Part shown: positions 6,760 to 52,050 of the stretch, one piece after another
Numbering within the stretch: the stretch's first letter is position 1
Layout: each line of letters starts with the position of its first letter
Origin: an uncultured Thermoleophilia bacterium
Lineage (GTDB): Bacteria > Actinomycetota > Thermoleophilia > UBA2241
DNA: 64,000 bases
Direction: 5' to 3'
NCBI GenBank assembly: GCA_963707855.1
Contig: CAVPRQ010000017.1
Location: 33,040 to 97,039 of the forward strand
Notes under the pieces: generated by a model
What the model was told of the DNA's origin: nothing
Databases searched by the model: none
What the model saw: only the letters and a program-made list of their open reading frames with translations
Made by a program: the position numbers and the translations under genes

Positions 6760-7622
6760 CTAGAGCAGGAGCACGGCGACGATGACGACGGCGCCGTACA
6801 GCAGGCCCACGGCGCCGTTGAGGCTCATGAAGCCCATGCCGACCTCGTCAAGCCCGCGGCGAGCGATGTCGACATGCGACCACCCGAGCAGCGCGGCGAC
6901 GGCGAGGAGGCCGATCCAGTAGACCAGCCCGAGACCGAGGAGAGCCCCGACCGCGGCAAGCAGCGCGATCGCGGCGACGTGCGAGAGCAGGGCGACGAGC
7001 AGGGCCCGGCGCCAGCCGAGCGCCACGGCCACCGAGTGCAGGCCCTCGCGCCGGTCGAAGTCGAGGTCGAAGATGCCGTAGATGACGTCGAAGCCTCCGA
7101 CCCACAGGCAGACGGCGAGGAACAGCAGCACCGTCTCGAGCGCCACGCTGCCGGTCACGGCGACCCAGGCGGCGGCCGGGGCGAGCCCGAGCGTCAGGCC
7201 CAGGGCGTAGTGGCAGAGGGCCGTCACCCGCTTCGAGTAGGGGTACGCGACGAACGCCGCGAGAGGGATCGGCCAGAGATAGCGGCACGGCGGCGAGAGC
7301 TGGAACGCCGCGATCACCAGCAGGGCGACCGAGACGGTCGTGAAGAACCAGACGTCCTTGCGGCGCAGCTTGCCGGCTGGCAGCTCGCGCGCCGCCGTGC
7401 GCGGGTTGCGTGCGTCGATCCCGGCGTCGATGAGGCGGTTGAGCGCCATGGCGGAGCTGCGCGCGCCGACCATGGCGACGGTGATCCACAGAAGGTCCCA
7501 CCAGCCGGGGAAGCGCAGCTCCGCGAGAAACGCCCCCGCGAAGGCGAACGGCAGCGCGTAGACGCTGTGCTCGATCTTGATGAGGCGCGCGAAGAGCAGA
7601 GGACGCTCAGAAGGGGCGTCAC
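6760..7622 (-). CDS. UbiA-family aromatic polyprenyltransferase (menaquinone-type)
   Basis: ORF 6760..7473 plus manual upstream extension in the same frame: ERPLLFARLIKIEHSVYALPFAFAGAFLAELRFPGWWDLLWITVAMVGARSSAMALNRLIDAGIDARNPRT... Multi-TM. There is no in-frame ATG/GTG upstream of LIKIEHSV. The GTG at 7622 is one frame off, so the start is uncertain (1-nt indel or an unusual start). Confidence 0.8.
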
Positions 7623-7632
7623 CCGGTCGTGC

Positions 7633-7929
7633 TCACGGAACGGCGGCGGGCGTCAGACGTCGGCGGACGCGGATCGACGGGCCCGCAGGTGGCGCTGCCC
7701 GCGACTCGACGGAAGCAGTCTCCGGCTCGGTGCCGAAGTCGGCGAGGACGAAGGAAGTGATGGCGACGACGGCGGCGAAGAGCCCGATGACGAAGAGGAT
7801 CGCGTACACGAAGATGCTGGTCGGTACGGCGATCCCGAGGTAGGAGCTCAGGGTCCAGCAGGCGATGGCGATCGCCCAGTTGGCGATCGAGAGGATCAAC
7901 AAGTGACGATGGATGTTGCCGTGCAGCAC
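7633..7929 (-). CDS. Small two-TM membrane protein, unknown function
   Basis: C-terminal part of ORF 7633..8208. GTG at 7929 is preceded by GAGGAGG at 5-nt spacing. Sequence VLHGNIHRHLLILSIANWAIAIACWTLSSYLGIAVPTSIFVYAILFVIGLFAAVVAITSFVLADFG... G/C-rich third positions. Confidence 0.5.
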   Translation of the reverse strand: MLHGNIHRHLLILSIANWAIAIACWTLSSYLGIAVPTSIFVYAILFVIGLFAAVVAITSFVLADFGTEPETASVESRAAPPAGPSIRVRRRLTPAAVP

Positions 7930-42430: not shown

Positions 42431-44270
42431 CTACTCCTCGATCCGATGGGCGCGGCGACGGCGCCACAGCATGATGAGCGCGATCACGAGCGCCGCCGCG
42501 GCGACACCGACGACCCCCCAGATCCACGGCGTGCCGGAGCTCGACGATGCCGTCGCCGCCGTCTTCGGCTGCAGGTCCTGGTAGGTCGTGCGGATCATGT
42601 TCCAGAACGGGGCCCCTTCCGGTCCGGGCGCGCTCACGTACCCCGACCACCGGTCGGTCCGGTAGGCCGCCAGGTTGACGTTGTACCAGAGCACGATGTC
42701 GGGGCAGTCGCGGTGGATGATCTCCTGCATCGCGAAGACGATCGCCTGCCGCTTGCTCAGGTCACTGGGGTTCGCGGGGTCGAGAGCCTGGGCCTGCTGG
42801 TCGTAGAGCGCGTCGTACTCGGGATTGGAGTACTGGTTCATGCTGTTGTTCATGATCTGCGTCGTGGTGTACGTGGAGAGCATGAACCCCGGGTCGATGT
42901 CGCCGCCCCAGCTCCAGATGAACAGGTCGTAGTTGGCGTTGTCGTAGAACTGGTCGTAGAAGGCGCCCTCCGCCATCTGGTCGAGCTTCAACTTGATGCC
43001 GACGTCGCGGCACCACCCCACGATCATCTTGGCGGCGCTGAGGTCCTCCGGATACTCGTTCAGGGCGACGAAGCGGAAGGCGAGCGGCTCGCCGCCCGGC
43101 GCCTCGCGCACGCCGTCGCCGTTGCTCGTCGACGTAGCCGGCCGCTTCGAGGATCTGCTTGGCCTTCTCGGGGTCGTAGCTGTAGGCCTGGTCGGCCGGC
43201 GGCGTCCACTGCCAGAAGGGCTGAGCCGGGCCGAACATCGCCGCGCCCGTCACGGAGAGCCCGCCCATCGAGATGGTGTTGATCTTCTCCCTGTCGATCG
43301 CCCAGGCGACCGCCTGGCGGATGTTCACGTCGCGCGTCAGCGGATTGCCCTTCGAATCGGGCGAATCCCAGCAGTTGAAGCTGAGCTGGTGGAAGCCGAT
43401 CGCCGGCCCGGCGTCGACGGCGGTGCCCGGCATGTCCTTGAGGGTCTCGTAGTCGAGGGCCGTGAACGAGCTGATGGCGTCGAGGGTGCCGGCCTTGTAG
43501 TCGGCGACCATGGTGTCGACGGTCTGGTAGATCTCGAAGCGCACGGTCTGGATGTTGGGCGGCCCGCCGAGCGCCTCGGGATAGTCCGGGTTGGCCTCGA
43601 GCGTCGTCCAGTGGCTCTTCTTGACCTCCGTCACGCGAAACGGGCCCGAGCCGACGAACGGCAGGTTCTTGAAGTAGTCGAGCTTGTCGGGATCGACCTT
43701 GCTCCAGACGTGCTCGGGCAGGATCGGGATGTACAGCGCCAGCATGCCGGAGTTGGGCTTCTCGGTCGCGATCACGACGGTGAGGTCGTCGGGCGCCGTC
43801 ACGCTGGTCACGCCCACCAGGTACTGGATGTACATCCAATGCTGCGTGTCGAGGATCAGGTTGTAGGTGAAAGCGACATCGCGCGCGGTCAGCGGCCGGC
43901 CGTCGCTCCACTTGAGGTCCGGGCGCAGGTGGAAGGTCCAGCGCAGGGCATCGGAGCTGACCTCCCAGCTCTCGGCGGCGTCGGGCACGGGCTTGTAGTC
44001 GCCGTCGTACCAGGTGAGGAAGTTGTAGCCGAGACGGAAGCTCTCCCACGCGATCGAGCTCTGGGAGCTGAAGGGGTTCATACCGTCGACGACGTCCTGG
44101 GCGATGCCGATGCGATAGACCAGCTCGCCGCTCGACGGCGACGCGGAGGGCGTCGGCGAGGCGCTCCAGGCGGCGCCCGCCGCTGCGCTCCCGATCACGA
44201 GACACACGAGCGAGGCGGCGACCGCCTTCAGCGGCAGCCTGAGAACCTGACGGAACGGATGCTCGAACAT
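42431..44270 (-). CDS. ABC transporter substrate-binding protein, family 5, with C-terminal TM anchor; 1 frame break
   Basis: Join of 42762..44312 (from ATG 44270) with 42431..43111. First piece: MFEHPFRQVLRLPLKAVAASLVCLVIGSAAAGAAWSASP..., LRPDLKWSDGRPLTARDVAFTYN, FNCWDSPDSKGNPLTRDVNIRQAVAWAIDRE. Second piece: ...WSWGGDIDPGFML... ending GTPWIWGVVGVAAAALVIALIMLWRRRRAHRIEE*. Break near 43110. Confidence 0.82.
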
Positions 44271-44654
44271 GGCCCCCCCTTGACTGGCATCACGTGACCC
44301 GGCGCTTCTCATGCTACTCCCGTCGACGACTGGTTGGCACGGGTCTTGGCTTGGTCGGCTCCCGTCCTCAAGACGGCTCTGAGTGATGGGGGCACCGCGT
44401 GTCGGTCATCGCCGTCGCGTCGATCATGTCGGAGCCACCGTCGCCCGGCAAGCGGAGCCGCGTCCTGAAGTGCCACGCACCTGCCGGAGCCGCAGTGGCA
44501 AGGATGTGCCGGAGCCGCACAGGGGTCTTGGGGACGCTGGGGCACGGCATCGAGTACACCTCGCCGACAGGCGAGGACAGAGTCGGTCGCCACCCGGGCC
44601 ACGGACGGGCACGGTCCATGCGGCTCGGCGCGCTCTCGGCGGGGATGAAGACGG

Positions 44655-44820: not shown

Positions 44821-46056
44821 ATGAAAGTCCTCATCGTAGGCGCGGGAGCGCAGGGTCACGTCGTCACCTGGAACCTGGCCCGCTGTCCGGAGATCTCCAG
44901 GATCGTCCTCGGCGATGTCGACGAAGCGCGGGCGCGCGCGGTCGCCGACCAGGTGGGCGGCGGCAAGACCGAGGCGATCGCCCTCGACGCCTCCGACGTC
45001 GAGGCGGTCAAGAAGGCGGCGGCCGGCTGCAAGCTGGTGATGAACGCCACGATCCCCGAGTTCAACATGGCGATCGCCGAGGCTTGTCTGGCCGTCGGCG
45101 TCAGCTACCAGGACATGGCGACCGGCACGCTGATCGACAAGACGATCGACGAGGCCACACTGGCCCAGTTCGAGCTTGACGGCGAGTTCAAGAAGGCCGG
45201 CCTGACGATGCTCTCCTGCACCGGCATGGACCCCGGCGTCAGCAGCACCTTCGCCGGCAACGCCTACGAGGACCTCGACGTCTGCACCGACATCCACATC
45301 AGGGACTACGCGGTCCTCGAGAGCCCCGTGCCGCTGCAGATGTGGTCGGTGTGGACGTACTACACGGACTGCGCCACGCCGCCGCTGACCTTCCAGGACG
45401 GCAAGTACAAGCGCGAGCAGCCGTTCGGGCTGCGCGAGTACTACGAGTTCCCGGCGCCGTTCGGCCGCGGTTGCGTGATCGCGCACGACCACGAGGAGCT
45501 CTCGACGCTCCCGCGCTTCCTGCCCAGGCACTTCGGAGACAAGGGCCTGAAGAACGTCACCTTCAAGCTCGGCATGGACGAAGCGGCAGTCAACGCCGAC
45601 GAGGCGTTCGTGGCCAGCGGCATGGCGAGCAAGGAGCCCGTGCTGGTGAACGGGGTCATGGTCCGGCCCATCGACGTCTACTGCGCCACGCTGTCCCCGA
45701 ACCCCGCGCCGGCCGAGATGAAGCGCCTGGTCGAGGCCGGAGAGATCCAGGACTACGGCATCATCCTCTGCGACGCCTGGGGCGAGAAGGACGGCAAGCC
45801 GGCCAAGTGGAACTACTCCGTCTTCACGCCCACGATCCAGTGGATCACCGAGCGCATCCCCGGCGCCACGTCCGTCTCTTACGGGACCTCGACGCCGGCG
45901 TCGATCTACTCCGAGTTCATGGTCAAGGACATGGTCAAGCAGAAGGGCGTCGTCGTTCCCGAGATCCTCGATCGCCCGGTCCGCGACGCCTTCATCCAGG
46001 AACTCGGCAACCGCGGCCTGCGGGTCACCCGCAGCTTCGAGACGCAGATCAACTGA
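44821..46056 (+). CDS. Saccharopine dehydrogenase family NAD(P)-binding protein
   Basis: Uninterrupted 411-aa ORF with AAGGGAGGAAG upstream. MKVLIVGAGAQGHVVTWNLARCPEISRIVLGDVDEARARAVADQVG (Rossmann fold), NATIPEFNMAIAEACLAVGVSYQD. Confidence 0.82.
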   Translation: MKVLIVGAGAQGHVVTWNLARCPEISRIVLGDVDEARARAVADQVGGGKTEAIALDASDVEAVKKAAAGCKLVMNATIPEFNMAIAEACLAVGVSYQDMATGTLIDKTIDEATLAQFELDGEFKKAGLTMLSCTGMDPGVSSTFAGNAYEDLDVCTDIHIRDYAVLESPVPLQMWSVWTYYTDCATPPLTFQDGKYKREQPFGLREYYEFPAPFGRGCVIAHDHEELSTLPRFLPRHFGDKGLKNVTFKLGMDEAAVNADEAFVASGMASKEPVLVNGVMVRPIDVYCATLSPNPAPAEMKRLVEAGEIQDYGIILCDAWGEKDGKPAKWNYSVFTPTIQWITERIPGATSVSYGTSTPASIYSEFMVKDMVKQKGVVVPEILDRPVRDAFIQELGNRGLRVTRSFETQIN

Positions 46057-46257: not shown

Positions 46258-48381
46258 TCACTCCGGTGAGACGACGACCGGCGTGCTCTCGGTACCCTCG
46301 ACCTCGCGTCGCCACGCGGCTCGCTTACCGACGCGCGCGCGCAGTTGCCAGCGCCGCGTCTTCTGCTCGTCCTCGATGGCCTCGAGGGCGGCCGTGACGC
46401 GCCCGTAGACGCGCGCGCGTTCCTCCTCCGAGAGGCCGTAGTCACCGAGCCAGTCCAGGACGATCCGCAGGTTCGTCGTGATGTCGGTGTAGAGGCCCCA
46501 GTCCGCGGCGCACACCTCGGCGAGGTAGGGGACGTAGATCGACAGGTCGTCGTCGATCTCGCGCAGGGGCAGATCCTTGAACAGGGCGATGATGTCGTGG
46601 ATGTCCTTCTGGTTGATCCTGCCGATCTGCGCCTTGGCGATGAGGGCGTCGACCGGCGAGATCGCGTACTCGTCGAGCTCCAGCCGGTCGCGGATGTCGA
46701 TGTCGTGGTCCATCCTCATGACGTCGAGGAAGACGTCGACATGGTCGACGAGGGACCTGGCGGACGCTCTCACGTCGTCGGGCGCCTCCACGCCGTCGGG
46801 CCCCGCGGCTTCCTCGGGCGCCGCCATTGCTTCGGGCGCCACCCCTTCGTCGGGCGCCTCCAGGCGTTCGGGCGGCGCGGCGCGAAGCGCCTCCTTCCTC
46901 ACGAACTGCAGCTGCGCCCCAACGGTCGCGTGGCTGACGTAGCGGTTCTCGACGTAGCCGAGATCGCTCATGACCCCAGACAGCGCCTCCCTCTGCTCCG
47001 AGAGGCCGATGAGGTCGACGTCCGAGTACTCGCGGTCCATGAACTCGAGGTCGATGCAGTGGCGGCGTATGGCGAGGCCGCCGGCGAGCCGTACGTCCAC
47101 GCCGGCGCGGTAGGCCGCGTCGATGATCGCCATGGCCTCGCTCATCAGGCGGTCGGCCCGGCGACCCGGCCTGTGATACCACCTGAGCCACGACTTCTGC
47201 GGCTCGCCCGCCGGCACCTCGTCGGCGCCGCCGACGATGGACTCGATGGGCTCCTCGATGGCGTCGAGGATGGACGGCGCCACCCAGAGACGAGGGCGGC
47301 TCGCGCCCGGTACCGGCACGAGCAGGCCGGCGTCCTTGAGCCGCGCCACGGCCCGCCGGGCCGCGCCGTCGCCCACCCTCAGCGTGCGCCGTGCCTCGGG
47401 CACCGACGTGTACGGCGACACGAAGAGCTCGTCCACGAGCTCGTGCAGCCTCTCGTCGCTCTGCACCCGGTAACGGGCGTACTCGCGGATCAGCGTGCGC
47501 GCCTGCGCGTAGGCGCGTTCCGCCGTCTCGCGCACCCCGTCGAGGAAGAAGAGCAGCCAGGGCAGCCACTCGCCGTGCGTGTGCACGCGCTGGAGCAGAG
47601 CGTAGTAGTCGCGACGATGCGCCTCGAGGTAGGCCGACAGGTACAGGAGTGGTTGAGAGAGCCGTCCGCGCTCGGCGAGGAAGAGCGCGATGATGATGCG
47701 GCCCAGCCGCCCGTTACCGCCGATGAACGGGTGGATGGACTCGAACTGCGCGTGGACCATCGCGCACTGCACGAGGTCGGGCAGCCGGCCACGCTCGCCC
47801 ATGAAGACGTCGAGCTGCCGCAGCCGGGCGTGCATCTGCGGGAGCGGCGGAGGCACGTAGGTGGCGTCGGCCAGGGTCGACCCAGGCGGCCCGATCCAGT
47901 TCTGCGTGGTCCTGAACTCGCCCGGCGCCGTGGCCGTGGCCGGCTCGCCGCGCGAGAGGCGCTCGTGCAGGCTGCGGATCAGATCCAGATCGAGCGGGTG
48001 CGAGACGAGAGACTCGATCCCGTACATGAGGGTCGCGAGCGCGTTCCACACGCGGTCGACCTGGATGAGGCGGGGGCCGGCGGGCGTCGCGGAGACCTCG
48101 CGGAGCAGCAGCTCCGTGAGGGTCACGTCGGCGCCCTCGATCCGCGAGCAGAACAGCGCCTCCTGGCGCAGGAACGGCGCCGTCAGCACCGCTGGATCGG
48201 GCAGACTGGCGCCGAGCCCGGAGAGCGCGCCCAGGGCGGCGTCGGCGCGCGACAACGCCACGACGAGCTCCCTCGTGAAGGTCAGCTTGGGCGGCAGCGG
48301 CGCCGGCACGAAGGCGGCGTGACCCTCGGGGCAGGTGACGACCCGCCCTGCCTTCGATGCCTTGAACTCGCTGGCGTCCAT
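46258..48381 (-). CDS. Fic-domain protein (Fic_N + Fic + wHTH) fused to a C-terminal nucleotidyltransferase-fold domain
   Basis: Uninterrupted 707-aa ORF. N-terminal helix ...RQEALFCSRIEGADVT, Fic motif HPFIGGNGRLGR (aa 217-228), wHTH-like ...[18 protein letters not shown] (aa ~340-360). Then comes VDVRLAGGLAIRRHCIDLEFMDREYSDVDLIGL (G-G ... D-x-D) and later HVDVFLD, consistent with a minimal NTase fold. Confidence 0.75.
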   Translation of the reverse strand: MDASEFKASKAGRVVTCPEGHAAFVPAPLPPKLTFTRELVVALSRADAALGALSGLGASLPDPAVLTAPFLRQEALFCSRIEGADVTLTELLLREVSATPAGPRLIQVDRVWNALATLMYGIESLVSHPLDLDLIRSLHERLSRGEPATATAPGEFRTTQNWIGPPGSTLADATYVPPPLPQMHARLRQLDVFMGERGRLPDLVQCAMVHAQFESIHPFIGGNGRLGRIIIALFLAERGRLSQPLLYLSAYLEAHRRDYYALLQRVHTHGEWLPWLLFFLDGVRETAERAYAQARTLIREYARYRVQSDERLHELVDELFVSPYTSVPEARRTLRVGDGAARRAVARLKDAGLLVPVPGASRPRLWVAPSILDAIEEPIESIVGGADEVPAGEPQKSWLRWYHRPGRRADRLMSEAMAIIDAAYRAGVDVRLAGGLAIRRHCIDLEFMDREYSDVDLIGLSEQREALSGVMSDLGYVENRYVSHATVGAQLQFVRKEALRAAPPERLEAPDEGVAPEAMAAPEEAAGPDGVEAPDDVRASARSLVDHVDVFLDVMRMDHDIDIRDRLELDEYAISPVDALIAKAQIGRINQKDIHDIIALFKDLPLREIDDDLSIYVPYLAEVCAADWGLYTDITTNLRIVLDWLGDYGLSEEERARVYGRVTAALEAIEDEQKTRRWQLRARVGKRAAWRREVEGTESTPVVVSPE

Positions 48382-48390
48382 CGCGCCGGG

Positions 48391-48543
48391 TCAGGCCCTC
48401 GTCCAAAGGCCGACCGCGGTGCCGAACTGCCGCCCCGTCTCCCTGAGTTCGCTGCTCAGCAGCTCGCGGTGGAGCTGCGCCAGACGCTGCCCTCGATGGC
48501 GGATGGCGGTGACGGAGGCGACCAGACGCTCACTCAGCCCCAC
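48391..48543 (-). pseudogene. Truncated 5' fragment of a holin-X paralogue
   Basis: GTG 48543 after GAGGGGGGAG. VGLSERLVASVTAIRHRGQRLAQLHRELLSSELRETGRQFGTAVGL aligns with MTLRERLVASVTDIRDRGQRLARLNRELLVSELKEKGRRFGAAIAL of 38741..39247. Similarity ends near 48405, before any TM helix, with a stop at 48391. The Fic ATG follows at 48381. Confidence 0.65.
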
Positions 48544-48687
48544 GCTCCCCCCTCTTCCCCGGCTGACTGGCATCTCACGGCGATCCACCGCGTCTGACCA
48601 GGACCTGCGGAGGTAGCACTCATGCATCGCGCCCCTCGTGAGACGGCCCTCGATCGCGCAGCGCCGCGCGACGGACGAGCGGCTCCA

Positions 48688-51600
48688 TCACCGGACTGTG
48701 AGCACCGTACTGAGCGGGGTCGTGTCTCCGGCCCACGTGGCCGTCGCGACCGTGTACGCCCTGAAGCGGTACTTGCCTTTCGTGATCAGCTTGACCTTCA
48801 CGGCGTACCTGGTGTTGCTGCCGCTGTCGGCGTTGGTGGCCGAGACCTGCTTGACGAAGACCCAGCGACGGTTCTTGTAGCGGTAGACCTTGACCTTGAC
48901 GGTCCTCTCGCCTGCCGGGAAGTGCGGCCTGAGCGTGCCGTACACGGTGAACGACCGCCGCGACCTCACCGACGACGGCACCTTGGGTACGCCCAGCAGC
49001 GGCCGCACGCCCACCCGCACCATGTAGCTGAGCGAGTCACCGTAGTTCGAGCCCGCTTCAGCCACGAAGCGCACCCGGTAGTAGATCGAGCTCGTCGGCG
49101 TGACGGTCAGACTGAAGGTGCCCACGGAGGCTATGTCCGCGCTGGTCGTCAGCGTCTGCAGGTCCACCCACGGTCCTGCGGTCGACGACGCTGACTGCAC
49201 CGTGACGGACCGGCCGCCCATGCCTACCTCGCCCAGAGGATCGCTGGAGTCCCACAGCACGCCGCGGAGCACGGTGGAGGCCCCGTAGTCGACGATGGTC
49301 TTCCTCGCGCTGACCTCGATCCTCGTCTGCACGCCCGCGCGAAGCTGGCGCTGATCGTGTGGCTGGCGGTGACGTTGGCTGAAGCTGTAGCTCGGGACTG
49401 GACCGATGGAGACGCCGTCGACGAGCACGTCGGCAATGTAGTAACCCTTCGCCGCTGTGATCGTGAAGGCCTGGGTGGCGCCGTAGTCCACGGTCTGCGC
49501 GCCCAGCGGGCTGATGCGTGCCGTGGGCCCCGGCGCTGGCGGTGATCGTGAAGGTGTCGATCGCGAAGGTGGCGCTGATCGTGTGGTCCGCGGTCACGTT
49601 GGTGAACGTGTAGGAGGTGCGGGCGCCGACCGAGACGCCGTCGACGAGCACGTCGGCGACGTGGTAGCCGGTCGCCGGGTCGATGGTGAAGGCCTGGCTC
49701 GGCGCCGTGGGTCGACGGTCTGCGCGCCCAGCGGGCTGATGGTGCCGTGGGCCCCGGCGCAGGAGGTGATCGTGTAGGTCAGGCGTCGCGAAGGTGGCGC
49801 TGACGGCGAGGTTCGCGGTGACGTTGCGTGTCGGTGCGCGTGGCGGTCGTCGACGCCGTCGCTCCAGCGCGGTGAAGCGGTAGCCGGTGTCGGGATCGGC
49901 GGTGACGGCGGTGCCGTCCTCGCCGTAGGCGACGGTCTGCGAGGTGTCGCCGGTGACGCTGCCGCCCGCGCCGGCGCTGTAGGTGAGGCGTGTAGGTCAG
50001 GCTCGCGAAGGTGGCGCTGACGGCGAGGTTCGCGGTGACGTTGGTGTCGGTGCGCGTGGCGGTCGTGACGCCGTCGCTCCAGCCGGTGAAGCGGTAGCCG
50101 GTGTCGGGATCGGCGGTGACGGCGGTGCCGTCCTCGCCGTAGGCGACGGTCTGCGAGGTGTCGCCGGTGAGCGCTGCCGCCCGCGCCGGCGCTGTAGGTG
50201 AGGCTGTAGGTCAGGCGCGCGAAGGTGGCGCTGACGGCGAGGTTCGCGGTGACGTTCGTGTCGGTGCGCGTGGCGGTCGTGACGCCGTCGCTCCAGGCGG
50301 TGAAGCGGTAGCCGGTGTCGGGATCGGCGGTGACGGCGGTGCCGTCCTCGCCGTAGGCGACGGTCTGCGAGGTGTCGCCGGTGACGCTGCCGCCCGCGCC
50401 GGCGCTGTAGGTGAGGCTGTAGGTCAGGCGCGCGAAGGCGGCGCTGACGGCGAGGTTCGCGGTGACGTTCGTGTCGGTGCGCGTGGCGGTCGTGACGCCG
50501 TCGCTCCAGCCGGTGAAGCGGTAGCCGGTGTCGGGATCGGCGGTGACGGCGGTGCCGTCCTCGCCGTAGGCGACGGTCTGCGAGGTGTCGCCGGTGACGC
50601 TGCCGCCCGCGCCGGCGCTGTAGGTGAGGCTGTAGGTCAGGCGCGCGAAGGCGGCGCTGACGGCGAGGTTCGCGGTGACGTTCGTGTCGGTGCGCGTGGC
50701 GGTCGTGACGCCGTCGCTCCAGCCGGTGAAGCGGTAGCCGGTGTCGGGATCGGCGGTGACGGCGGTGCCGTCCTCGCCGTAGGCGACGGTCTGCGAGGTG
50801 TCGCCGGTGAGCGCTGCCGCCCGCGCCGGCGCTGTAGGTGAGGCTGTAGGTCAGGCGCGCGAAGGAGGCGCTGACGGCGAGGTTCGCGGTGATGTTCGTG
50901 TCGGTGCGCGTGGCGGTCGTGACGCCGTCGCTCCAGGCGGTGAAGCGGTAGCCGGTGTCGGGATCGGCGGTGACGGCGGTGCCGTCCTCGCCGTAGGCGA
51001 CGGTCTGCGAGGTGTCGCCGGTGACGCTGCCGCCCGCGCCGGCGCTGTAGGTGAGGCTGTAGGTCAGGCGCGCGAAGGAGGCGCTGACGGCGAGGTTCGC
51101 GGTGACGTTCGTGTCGGTGCGCGTGGCGGTCGTGACGCCGTCGCTCCAGGCGGTGAAGCGGTAGCCGGTGTCGGGATCGGCGGTGACGGCGGTGCCGTCC
51201 TCGCCGTAGGCGACGGTCTGCGAGGTGTCGCCGGTGAGGCTGCCGCCCGCGCCGGCGCTGTAGGTGAGGCTGTAGGTCAGGCGCGCGAAGGCGGCGCTGA
51301 CGGCGAGGTTCGCGGTGACGTTGGTGTCGGTGCGCGTGGCGGTCGTGACGCCGTCGCTCCAGCCGGTGAAGCGGTAGCCGGTGTCGGGATCGGCGGTGAC
51401 GGCGGTGCCGTCCCCGCCGTAGGCGACGGTCTGCGAGGTGTCGCCGGTGAGCGCTGCCGCCCGCGCCGGCGCTGTAGGTGAGGCTGTAGGTCAGGCGCGC
51501 GAAGGCGGCGCTGACGGCGAGGTTCGCGGTGACGTTCGTGTCGGTGCGCGTGGCGGTCGTGACGCCGTCGCTCCAGGCGGTGAAGCGGTAGCCGGTGTCG

Positions 51601-52050
51601 GGATCGGCGGTGACGGCGGTGCCGTCCTCGCCGTAGGCGACGGTCTGCGAGGTGTCGCCGGTGAGCGCTGCCGCCCGCGCCGGCGCTGTAGGTGAGGCTG
51701 TAGGTCAGGCGCGCGAAGGAGGCGCTGATCGTGTGGTCCGCAGTGACGTTCGTGAACGTGTAGCTCGCCACCGCACCTTCCGAGGTGCCGTCAACGAGCA
51801 CGTCAGCGATCTCGTAGCCGGTGTTCGGGGAGATGGAGAACGTCTGGTCGGCTGACTCGACGACCGGGACATCGCCCGAAGGATCGATGTTGCCGCCCGG
51901 TCCGGCGCTCGCCGTGATGACCCAGGTGTCGCCGGGGGCGAGCGGGTCGGCCGCCATCACGAGACCAGCGCCGACGAGCACCAGCGCGACCGCCGTGGCA
52001 AGGACGAGCACGACGGTCACCAAGACCCGTAGGCTACGCAAGTTGCTCAC
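48688..52050 (-). CDS. Large secreted/surface repeat protein of about 1120 aa, multiply frame-broken: signal peptide, divergent InlB B-repeat domains, 9-10 Listeria-Bacteroides (Flg_new) repeats, two C-terminal Ig-like modules
   Basis: N-terminus is ORF 51277..52050: MSNLRSLRVLVTVVLVLATAVALVLVGAGLVMAADP..., then NTGYEIADVLVDGTSEGAVASYTFTNVTADHTISASFA. Manual translation of the repeats gives TYSAGAGGSVTGDTSQTVAYGEDGTAVTADPDTGYRFTGWSDGVTTATRTDTNVTANLAVSAAFARLTYSL. C-terminus comes from ORFs 49058..49651 and 48688..49491 (...YRVRFVAEAGSNYGDS...KVKVYRYKNRRWVFVKQVSA...TVLTVR*). No LPXTG motif seen. Confidence 0.75.
49777..51700. repeat. Tandem array of about 9 near-identical 213-bp (71-codon) units inside the surface protein gene
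   Basis: Unit consensus (+ strand): gtaggtcaggcgcgcgaagg[c/t/a]ggcgctgacggcgaggttcgcggtgacgtt[c/g]gtgtcggtgcgcgtggcggtcgtgacgccgtcgctccag[c/g]cggtgaagcggtagccggtgtcgggatcggcggtgacggcggtgccgtcctcgccgtaggcgacggtctgcgaggtgtcgccggtgacgctgccgcccgcgccggcgctgtaggtgaggct. Unit starts lie near 49777, 49989, 50206, 50419, 50632, 50846, 51059, 51272 and 51486. Confidence 0.9.

Follow-up and report, generated by a model that had tools for sequence, protein, structure and literature searches.

A 64,000-nucleotide (nt) stretch of DNA from an uncultured Thermoleophilia bacterium (contig CAVPRQ010000017.1, positions 33,040 to 97,039; hereafter, the window) carries on its minus strand a gene for a 707-residue protein, in which a Fic half ending in a winged helix-turn-helix (wHTH) domain is joined by a linker to a domain of the nucleotidyltransferase (NTase) fold. 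The open reading frame (ORF) at 46258..48381 is one real gene and encodes a single-polypeptide fusion of a SoFic-type Fic protein with an NTase-fold domain. Its segments and the basis of each assignment are as follows, with model confidence given as the predicted local distance difference test (pLDDT) score of AlphaFold2 (AF2) models.

46258..48381 (including the stop codon), minus strand: whole gene, encoding the 707-residue Fic-wHTH-linker-NTase fusion protein (ORF list; identical public protein P0121)
48010..48273, minus strand: N-terminal helical region, residues 37-124, with the putative equivalent of the dimerization helix and the inhibitory helix (Fic_N) (Pfam, model, SoFic alignment)
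48133..48150, minus strand: inhibitory motif CSRIEG, residues 78-83, of the class II (S/T)xxxE(G/N) type (translation)
47677..47997, minus strand: Fic core domain, Pfam match at residues 129-235 (Pfam, Foldseek)
47698..47733, minus strand: Fic signature HPFIGGNGRLGR, residues 217-228, with catalytic His217, Asn223, Arg225 and Arg228 kept and Gly221 in place of the Mg2+-binding Asp/Glu (translation, SoFic alignment)
47248..47460, minus strand: wHTH domain, residues 308-378, equivalent of the SoFic C-terminal domain (SoFic alignment to residue 372, helix-strand pattern of the model)
47161..47247, minus strand: disordered interdomain linker, residues 379-407 (pLDDT < 50 for residues 384-406)
47191..47196, minus strand: Lys396-Ser397 in the linker (Lys in 65 of 66 fusions; Ser in 62, Thr in 4)
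46261..47160, minus strand: NTase-fold domain, residues 408-707, with an N-terminal helix, β-sheet core, helical subdomain and basic tail (AF2 model, Foldseek, PF14907)
47014..47082, minus strand: NTase motif GG(x18)DxD, Gly434-Gly435...Asp454, Asp456 (translation)
46753..46893, minus strand: Ala/Pro/Glu-rich disordered insert between NTase β-strands, residues 497-543 (pLDDT < 50 in both models)
46723..46743, minus strand: HVDVFLD, residues 547-553, with the predicted third catalytic acidic residue of the NTase fold (β-strand at residues 547-552 in the model)

The fusion gene and its reading frame

The GC content at third codon positions (GC3) is 0.83-0.93 in frame in every segment of the ORF, from the Fic part through linker and insert to the C-terminal part. 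The start codon agrees with the homolog consensus MDPSEF, and a Shine-Dalgarno-like GAGGG element lies ~13 nt 5' of it. A 707-residue public protein (P0121) is identical to the window protein, and a full-length protein search yields 1,108 matches at E ≤ 1e-10. The best 120 of these are all family members, 119 of them with 605-765 residues and 54-100% identity to the window protein; where they carry a database name, it is only 'Fic family protein'. At least 120 protein clusters have the same junction between the Fic half and the C-terminal domain (C-domain).

Scanning one genome per species revealed 125 relatives of the C-domain, and 77 loci were kept. By tblastn, 72 of these loci have the Fic half immediately 5' of the NTase half; of the other five, two are truncated at contig ends, and L068, L074 and L079 are true stand-alone NTase genes. 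A first-pass annotation of the window, made from its letters alone, had advised surveying databases for the fusion versus adjacent separate genes, and the survey finds the fusion. Site conservation was assessed in 66 intact fusion ORFs, the window ORF counted among them. All 66 share the reading frame at the junction, and their linkers can be aligned residue by residue. Because the frame is intact through the junction in these homologs, no stop codon or frameshift has been missed there, and the uninterrupted 707-residue frame of the first-pass annotation stands. The translation likewise places CSRIEG at residues 78-83, HPFIGGNGRLGR at 217-228 and HVDVFLD at 547-553, as that annotation had quoted them.

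Could neighboring Fic and NTase genes have been joined by an indel in a noisy long-read assembly? Indel-type frame breaks do occur in the window and in many related metagenome-assembled genomes (MAGs): the SBP_bac_5 ORF at 42762-44312 has a garbled C-terminus, and the fusion genes of nine related loci, mostly from long-read 'MFD' MAGs, contain internal frame changes, which are indel noise or pseudogenes and do not point to two separate genes. However, the in-frame junction is repeated in the 66 intact ORFs, which come from independent assemblies that include short-read ones; the linkers align throughout; GC3 stays at ~0.9 through the linker; and the identical protein is on record. The common frame of the 66 intact homologs and the continuous GC3 rule out a frameshift or missed stop at the junction, and the probability that the fusion is an assembly artefact is negligible.

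The two halves have diverged to a similar degree, with 53-75% (Fic) and 51-76% (NTase) identity to the window protein, and the nearest locus is L004 (MAG MFD02979.bin.2.124; 96% identity). Soil, peat and sediment are the sources of nearly all carriers, which are uncultured Thermoleophilia or other Actinomycetota, and the fusion family is confined essentially to uncultured Thermoleophilia. No second fusion copy is present elsewhere within the 64-kb window. In the searchable literature we came across no account of a Fic-NTase fusion, in agreement with the earlier remark that such a protein was not known to be characterized; the proteins are already public under a generic name.

The two domains and the linker

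Residues 1-378 are assigned, by sequence and fold comparison, to the SoFic structural group of class II Fic proteins as a divergent member. Pfam detects Fic_N at residues 42-123 (E 1.9e-15; 57.1 bits against a cutoff of 26.7) and Fic (PF02661) at residues 129-235 (E 1.5e-14; 55.1 bits against a cutoff of 24), which places the protein in the Fic superfamily, and the model contains helices at residues 37-57 and 68-80. Residues 24-372 align end to end with residues 14-359 of SoFic in the Protein Data Bank (PDB) at E 1.7e-36, including the wHTH domain, within which a weak MarR_2 match lies at residues 325-359. The PADLOC SoFic model PDLC03963 is matched over positions 7-359 of 361 (E 8.4e-93, 309.6 bits); the SoFic equivalog NCBIfam NF046030 scores 134.3 bits against a cutoff of 550, and the window protein, at 707 residues with an extra catalytic domain, exceeds the ~370-residue single module of the SoFic type. 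Foldseek retrieves many Fic structures, the best being 7cb8 (Mycobacterium marinum Fic) and SoFic with target-normalized template-modeling (TM) scores of 0.74-0.79; no solved structure in the Foldseek PDB search spans both halves of the fusion.

SoFic (Shewanella oneidensis SO_4266; PDB 3eqx, 3zcn and 9tc4), EcSofic and 7cb8 share the architecture of window residues 1-378, namely a dimerization helix, a class II inhibitory helix with its E-G pair, a Fic core with the catalytic His and a C-terminal wHTH domain. The N-terminal dimerization helix is conserved in the fusion family. Unlike SoFic, to which it is ~28% identical, the window protein has Gly221 at the position of SoFic D202 and ~330 extra residues with a second catalytic domain; and unlike SoFic and EcSofic, it has neither a conserved small downstream AS1-like gene nor a defense context in the window.

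The active-site motifs of the Fic half are strictly conserved except at one position. The inhibitory motif keeps the Glu82-Gly83 pair of the class II inhibitory helix, with Cys at motif position 1 in the window protein and Ser in most members. Glu82, the putative inhibitory or deAMPylation glutamate, is kept in 65 of the 66 fusions, the remaining one having an alignment gap, and Gly83 is invariant. His217, Asn223, Arg225 and Arg228 are invariant in all 66. Compared with the canonical motif HxFx(D/E)GN(G/K)RxxR, HPFIGGNGRLGR contains the H, F, G, N, G, R and R and has Gly221 at position 5. The SoFic counterpart in the alignment is IHPFIDGNGRTGR, whose D202 aligns with Gly221; in SoFic, D202 holds the Mg2+ that bridges the α and β phosphates of ATP (PMC3667792). 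A neighbor-joining tree divides the fusions into three clades (E, G and W). Position 221, which is Gly in 51 of the 66 fusions, is Glu throughout clade E (12/12), Gly throughout clade G (42/42) and, in the window's own clade W, Gly in nine members and Asp in three of 12, the latter with the variant HPFVDSNGR. The window protein thus keeps the Fic AMPylase fold and most of its catalytic residues but not the canonical metal ligand. The first-pass description of a complete Fic AMPylase is upheld for the Fic_N helix, inhibitory motif, core and wHTH domain and not supported at the Mg2+-coordinating Asp/Glu, which is Gly here as in 51 of the 66 members.

The linker contains a single conserved feature. 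The full-length AF2 model (pLDDT 75.9; predicted TM score (pTM) 0.55) predicts the two halves as independent domains on a flexible tether, and the linker sequence varies freely across the fusions except at the Lys396-Ser397 pair. A K-[S/T] motif occurs in none of the stand-alone NTase relatives. We infer from this hydroxyl, which is conserved with Ser/Thr exchange although the rest of the linker between the two transferase domains is free to vary, that Ser397 is most simply a candidate cis acceptor or recognition site.

The C-domain has a predicted NTase fold with an intact catalytic signature and lies outside every characterized NTase family tested. An alignment-based AF2 model of this domain (pLDDT 84.6, pTM 0.80) is confident apart from the Ala/Pro/Glu insert and contains a helix, then a mixed β-sheet bearing G434-G435, D454/D456 and D549/D553, and then a helical subdomain. 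Residues 434-456 read GGLAIRRHCIDLEFMDREYSDVD, and the GG...DxD motif is invariant in all 66 fusions and all 46 C-domain relatives. The catalytic pattern hG[GS]...[DE]h[DE]h...h[DE]h of the Pol-β-like NTase superfamily is present, with its residues on predicted strands, and H547, D549, F551, D553 and K583 are invariant in 66/66 fusions. The insert varies in length across the family alignment; it was first placed at residues ~485-525 and lies instead at ~497-543, where both models are disordered. Both catalytic domains are under strict purifying selection.

Foldseek, which the first-pass annotation had advised running on each half, returns Fic structures for the N-terminal half and NTase-fold proteins for the C-terminal half, the latter with E values of ~1e-2 at best. 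The 12 best PDB matches of the C-domain are all NTase-fold proteins (among them ANT(2'')-Ia, MenT1, LnuA and the NTase-like antigen 5uvd), and TM1012, FKRP and CCA-adding enzymes rank lower; probabilities reach 1.0, but the best E value is 1.3e-2, and the aligned cores comprise 70-80 residues at 2.3-2.9 Å. PF14907 (NTP_transf_5) matches the window protein at residues 386-481 with 16.6 bits (E 0.006), below its gathering score of 31.2, and matches 31 of 46 close relatives at E < 0.1 and 29 of 60 distant relatives at E < 0.01 (best 1e-7). These scores suggest that the C-domain is a remote relative of PF14907 and not a member. PF10706, the aminoglycoside 2''-adenylyltransferase ANT(2'') family, matches six of the 46 relatives. 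The C-domain resembles PF14907, ANT(2'')-Ia and LnuA in its NTase β-sheet core, helical subdomain and GG...DxD...D signature, with all matches below curated or significance thresholds, and resembles MenT1 (Rv0078A) in its NTase fold (Foldseek probability up to 1.0, target-normalized TM score up to 0.56). Toxins of the MenT/AbiEii group are regulated by post-translational modification, as in phospho-MenT1 (PDB 8rr5). A profile search of the PDB with the C-domain alignment returned chance matches only, and a viral structure library returned nothing significant. Literature searches on the function of PF14907 and on the 7cb8 protein gave no relevant result.

The first-pass annotation had called the C-terminal half similar to minimal nucleotidyltransferases (MNT) and AbiEii. 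The GG...DxD...D signature and the predicted fold are upheld, and the MNT/AbiEii membership is rejected, as neither MNT (PF01909) nor AbiEii/DUF1814 (PF08843) gives a hidden Markov model (HMM) match at E ≤ 1 in the window protein or at E ≤ 0.1 in the 46 relatives. No cognate HEPN or AbiEi partner gene adjoins the fusion in the window or the stand-alone relatives. A HEPN-like Rx4-6H motif in the helical subdomain (R588...H595) was also considered and rejected, given that position 588 varies.

The C-domain is very acidic, with an isoelectric point (pI) of 4.7 and a net charge of about -17 without the insert. Its C-terminal tail (residues 668-707; 46261-46380), with the pattern K..RW.LRA.VG.R..WRRE, is basic (pI 10.7) and strongly conserved, distant stand-alone relatives included (K266, W270, R273 and W282 in A1 numbering). 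The tail could bind the substrate or fold back onto the active-site face.

Genomic context and the wider NTase family

Genomes with two or three fusion copies are common, and clades G and E occupy a fixed position. An S9 peptidase gene (PD40 propeller plus Peptidase_S9) adjoins the fusion gene on the same strand in 38 loci and, where a clade G copy is present, starts ~20-70 nt past its stop codon. In 27 loci, a YkfC-like NlpC/P60 gene follows the S9 peptidase gene and is itself followed by a clade E fusion where one is present. Wherever two neighboring fusions are resolved, one belongs to clade G and the other to clade E. The one-strand array of G fusion, S9 peptidase, NlpC/P60 and E fusion is seen in L038 (4777-11946) and ~30 other loci, for example L029, L033, L043 and L048. 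This fixed position across species looks like that of vertically inherited chromosomal genes and not of mobile defense cargo.

The flanks of clade W copies mostly differ between loci, and the window contains no S9 peptidase or NlpC homolog. Homology between the window and its 96% ortholog L004 is limited to window 46260-48385 and L004 4773-6898, that is, the ORF ± 2-4 nt. The earlier remark that the gene sits at a rearrangement junction has a basis in these boundaries, which fall within 2-4 nt of both ORF ends. In L004, a saccharopine dehydrogenase gene is found on the 5' side of the fusion, whereas in the window this gene (44821-46056) is on the 3' side. The synteny break would mean either that the fusion gene alone has recently moved or that the assembly is chimeric. 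The window neighbors encode, in addition to saccharopine dehydrogenase, an ABC solute-binding protein, an MBOAT protein, an ADH and a repeat surface protein, and PADLOC identifies no defense genes among the 10 neighboring ORFs. No conserved antitoxin-like or AS1-like small ORF and no conserved operator was found, and the flanks are unconserved even in the 96% ortholog. The upstream region of the window gene contains neither convincing inverted repeats nor a convincing sigma-70-like promoter; a -10-like element, GCATATACTC (TANNNT-like), lies upstream of several clade W relatives and is absent from the window copy.

Three neighboring ORFs or regions deserve a separate description. A 78-residue ORF (48391-48627, minus strand) ends 10 nt upstream of the Fic start, has no Pfam match and lies in a region that the 96% ortholog does not conserve; it has probably arisen by chance in high-GC DNA and is unlikely to be a partner gene. 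Directly upstream of the fusion gene, 48688-52050 (minus strand) apparently encodes one large secreted repeat protein with a signal-peptide-like start at ~52050. It contains 9.4 tandem copies of a 213-nt (71-residue) unit with 97% identity at 49754-51754, besides 2.2 older 224-nt copies, and the repeats are of the type 'GYxIADVLVDG...YTFTNVTADHTISA'. The frame of this region is split into several ORFs, with a strong GC skew, and the breaks may be assembly indels within the repeats. The SBP_bac_5 ORF (42762-44312, minus strand) has an Arg-rich nonsense C-terminus after approximately residue 400, and its Pfam match ends at 282 of 368 model positions, which suggests a frameshift and fits the first-pass remark that the window is rich in indels.

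The NTase domain belongs to a large family. An exhaustive profile search yields at least 2,271 representative clusters at 50% identity from bacteria and archaea, 552 of them at E ≤ 1e-30. Nearly all members are stand-alone hypothetical proteins of ~250-270 residues, and the rare fusions are with AhpC, phosphoribosyltransferase or a MarR-type wHTH domain. Stand-alone NTases in Thermoleophilia, Promethearchaeota and a Halobellus megaplasmid lie in housekeeping contexts without partner genes. The family is found in none of 50,697 phage records and in one of 72,556 plasmid records.

Some fusions have a diverged stand-alone NTase paralog nearby (35-39% identity, 274 residues, no Pfam match), at 7055-7879 (minus strand) in L001, ~10589-11200 in L026 and ~10474-11241 in L044; the L001 paralog is the divergently oriented neighbor of the fusion gene, 120 nt from its start. 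Some stand-alone NTases also have a zinc-ribbon-like C-terminal extension (CxxC...CxxC), as in L074 (5779-6996) and protein P0072.

Possible functions of the fusion protein

What is the biological function of a polypeptide with two different transferase domains? We tentatively propose, at somewhat below even confidence, that the fusion is a self-contained, self-regulated protein-nucleotidylylation module, with Ser397 as a cis acceptor, rather than a mobile defense toxin. SoFic AMPylates switch I of EF-Tu at T65 only as a dimer, its deAMPylation is constitutive and needs H198 and E73, and it binds its own promoter through the wHTH domain (bioRxiv 10.64898/2026.07.09.737422). By homology with SoFic, the Fic half of the fusion would mediate dimerization, bind DNA to autoregulate its expression and recognize a protein target, with EF-Tu as the leading candidate. 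The His/Glu pair required for deAMPylation in SoFic is kept, and the Gly221 replacement, which would remove the carboxylate for the Mg2+ of Mg-ATP, probably alters or weakens forward AMPylation. The NTase half, with all its metal ligands, may perform a second, Mg-dependent nucleotidyl transfer, and one of the two active sites would modify the linker Ser/Thr in cis and couple both activities.

Such cis coupling can be likened to the automodification that gates other Fic enzymes and to the gating of HEPN by MNT in FhepTA, a fused MNT-HEPN type VII toxin-antitoxin in which the NTase AMPylates its own partner domain and the linker is critical (PMC13000451). Like FhepTA, the fusion is a single chain that links an NTase to a second, potentially toxic enzymatic domain. 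The likeness is one of logic only, as FhepTA has a HEPN RNase partner and an N-terminal MNT-family NTase and is carried on mobile elements. Opposing activities are also combined in single proteins elsewhere: glutamine synthetase adenylyltransferase (GlnE) adds and removes AMP with two NTase-type domains, and FICD, EfFic and SoFic are bifunctional Fic enzymes, of which FICD and SoFic add and remove AMP at one Fic site under an inhibitory-Glu switch. In the fusion, by contrast, the two domains have unrelated folds, Fic and NTase.

Several points weigh against our proposal. The target, the nucleotide and the modification site are all inferred. Fic deAMPylation also draws on the acidic residue of the motif, and with Gly221 both directions may be impaired. 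Since stand-alone NTases function without a Fic partner, neither the Fic half nor its target has to be a substrate of the NTase, and the best fold and Pfam matches of the NTase domain are the small-molecule enzymes ANT(2'') and LnuA, with the acidity of the C-domain (pI 4.7) also fitting a cationic small-molecule substrate. AF2 docks the linker into neither active site and, at a pTM of 0.55, leaves the interdomain geometry undefined. In addition, the conserved K-S/T pair may be a site of proteolysis, docking or phosphorylation that has nothing to do with either domain.

The first-pass annotation favored a defense or toxin module, and its fullest form would be an abortive-infection toxin with two warheads, an EF-Tu AMPylase and a MenT/AbiEii-like NTase that blocks tRNA acceptor ends, autoinhibited and released by phage. 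EcSofic is toxic and defends by AMPylation, and it is countered by a small downstream protein (PMC12249575). The PADLOC SoFic match (E 8e-93), this EcSofic precedent, the presence of MenT1 among the top C-domain Foldseek matches, the several paralogs per genome, and the variable contexts of clade W, with a synteny break at both ORF ends relative to the 96% ortholog, are all consistent with such a toxin. We nevertheless consider this reading unlikely. The 10 window neighbors include no defense genes, no conserved antitoxin-like ORF was found in flanks that differ even from those of the 96% ortholog, and the phage records searched contain no member of the NTase family and the plasmid records only one. 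Stand-alone NTases lie without antitoxin partners amid housekeeping genes in bacteria and archaea, and clades G and E flank the S9-peptidase/NlpC-P60 pair at a fixed position, unlike mobile defense genes. The net charge of about -17 is unfavorable for tRNA binding, and AbiEii/MNT Pfam matches are nil. The fusion differs from the MenT/AbiEii group in having no cognate antitoxin gene or AbiEii/DUF1814 match, in its acidic domain and in the housekeeping contexts of its stand-alone relatives. The same neighborhood evidence (no PADLOC match in 10 neighbors, no conserved antitoxin ORF, housekeeping contexts, fixed position of clades G and E) tells against a defense or toxin module in general, as do the counts of 0/50,697 phage and 1/72,556 plasmid records on the mobile-element side. 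For the PADLOC SoFic system, the HMM score is reached and an association with defense or mobile elements is not seen; the match, which is the only datum in favor of defense, mirrors Fic homology rather than function.

Alternatively, the C-domain could be a small-molecule NTase that acts in the manner of ANT(2'') or Lnu on a cationic antibiotic or metabolite, with the Fic-wHTH half mainly its transcriptional or nucleotide-sensing regulator in a one-component sensor-effector. Aminoglycoside-modifying enzymes are very acidic. The best Foldseek matches (ANT(2'')-Ia and LnuA), the PF10706 matches in 6/46 relatives, the very acidic C-domain and the broad, stand-alone, housekeeping nature of the family agree with this possibility, as does the wHTH domain, since that of the SoFic type binds DNA and one other family NTase is fused to a MarR-type wHTH. 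It is quite unlikely all the same: the matches are sub-threshold only (Foldseek E ~1e-2; PF14907 16.6 bits against 31.2), the invariant Fic His, Asn, Arg and Glu argue for an enzyme and not only a regulator, and the invariant linker K-S/T is left unexplained. The Fic half of clades G and W might instead be an inactive pseudo-enzyme that merely binds nucleotide or a target and delivers the NTase to that target, possibly as a heterodimer with a canonical clade E paralog. Of 54 clade G/W members, 51 lack the Mg2+-binding acidic residue, neighboring pairs always combine a non-canonical (G) with a canonical (E) copy, and SoFic AMPylation needs dimerization through the N-terminal helix, which the fusions conserve. 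However, His217, Asn223, Arg225, Arg228 and Glu82 are invariant in 54/54 clade G/W proteins, which is unusual for a dead enzyme; Asp is regained at position 221 in a clade W subgroup (HPFVDSNGR); and the 64-kb window contains no second copy. A pseudo-enzyme is very unlikely.

A more novel possibility would be an intramolecular circuit, in which the linker Ser/Thr, once nucleotidylylated or phosphorylated by one domain, turns the other on or off. The fusion would then operate as a single-chain type-VII-like toxin-antitoxin or as a writer-eraser pair on a translation factor, with the Gly221 and Glu paralogs as heterodimers. We offer this circuit as a speculative idea of low probability.

Defense-system finders would label the fusion gene 'SoFic' by HMM score alone, and this call is unsafe because two clades hold a conserved chromosomal position and no defense context is found. 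The Fic and NTase folds are two known catalytic folds for protein AMPylation, and their conserved fusion provides a system in which to ask how the two chemistries couple or divide, with tractable features in the strict selection on both active sites, the clade-specific loss of the metal ligand and the single conserved linker hydroxyl. The fusion is also a first lead for a large uncharacterized NTase family of at least 2,271 clusters. If the intramolecular circuit is true, it would represent a kind of regulation so far undescribed for Fic enzymes and the first functional handle on this NTase family of >2,000 clusters.

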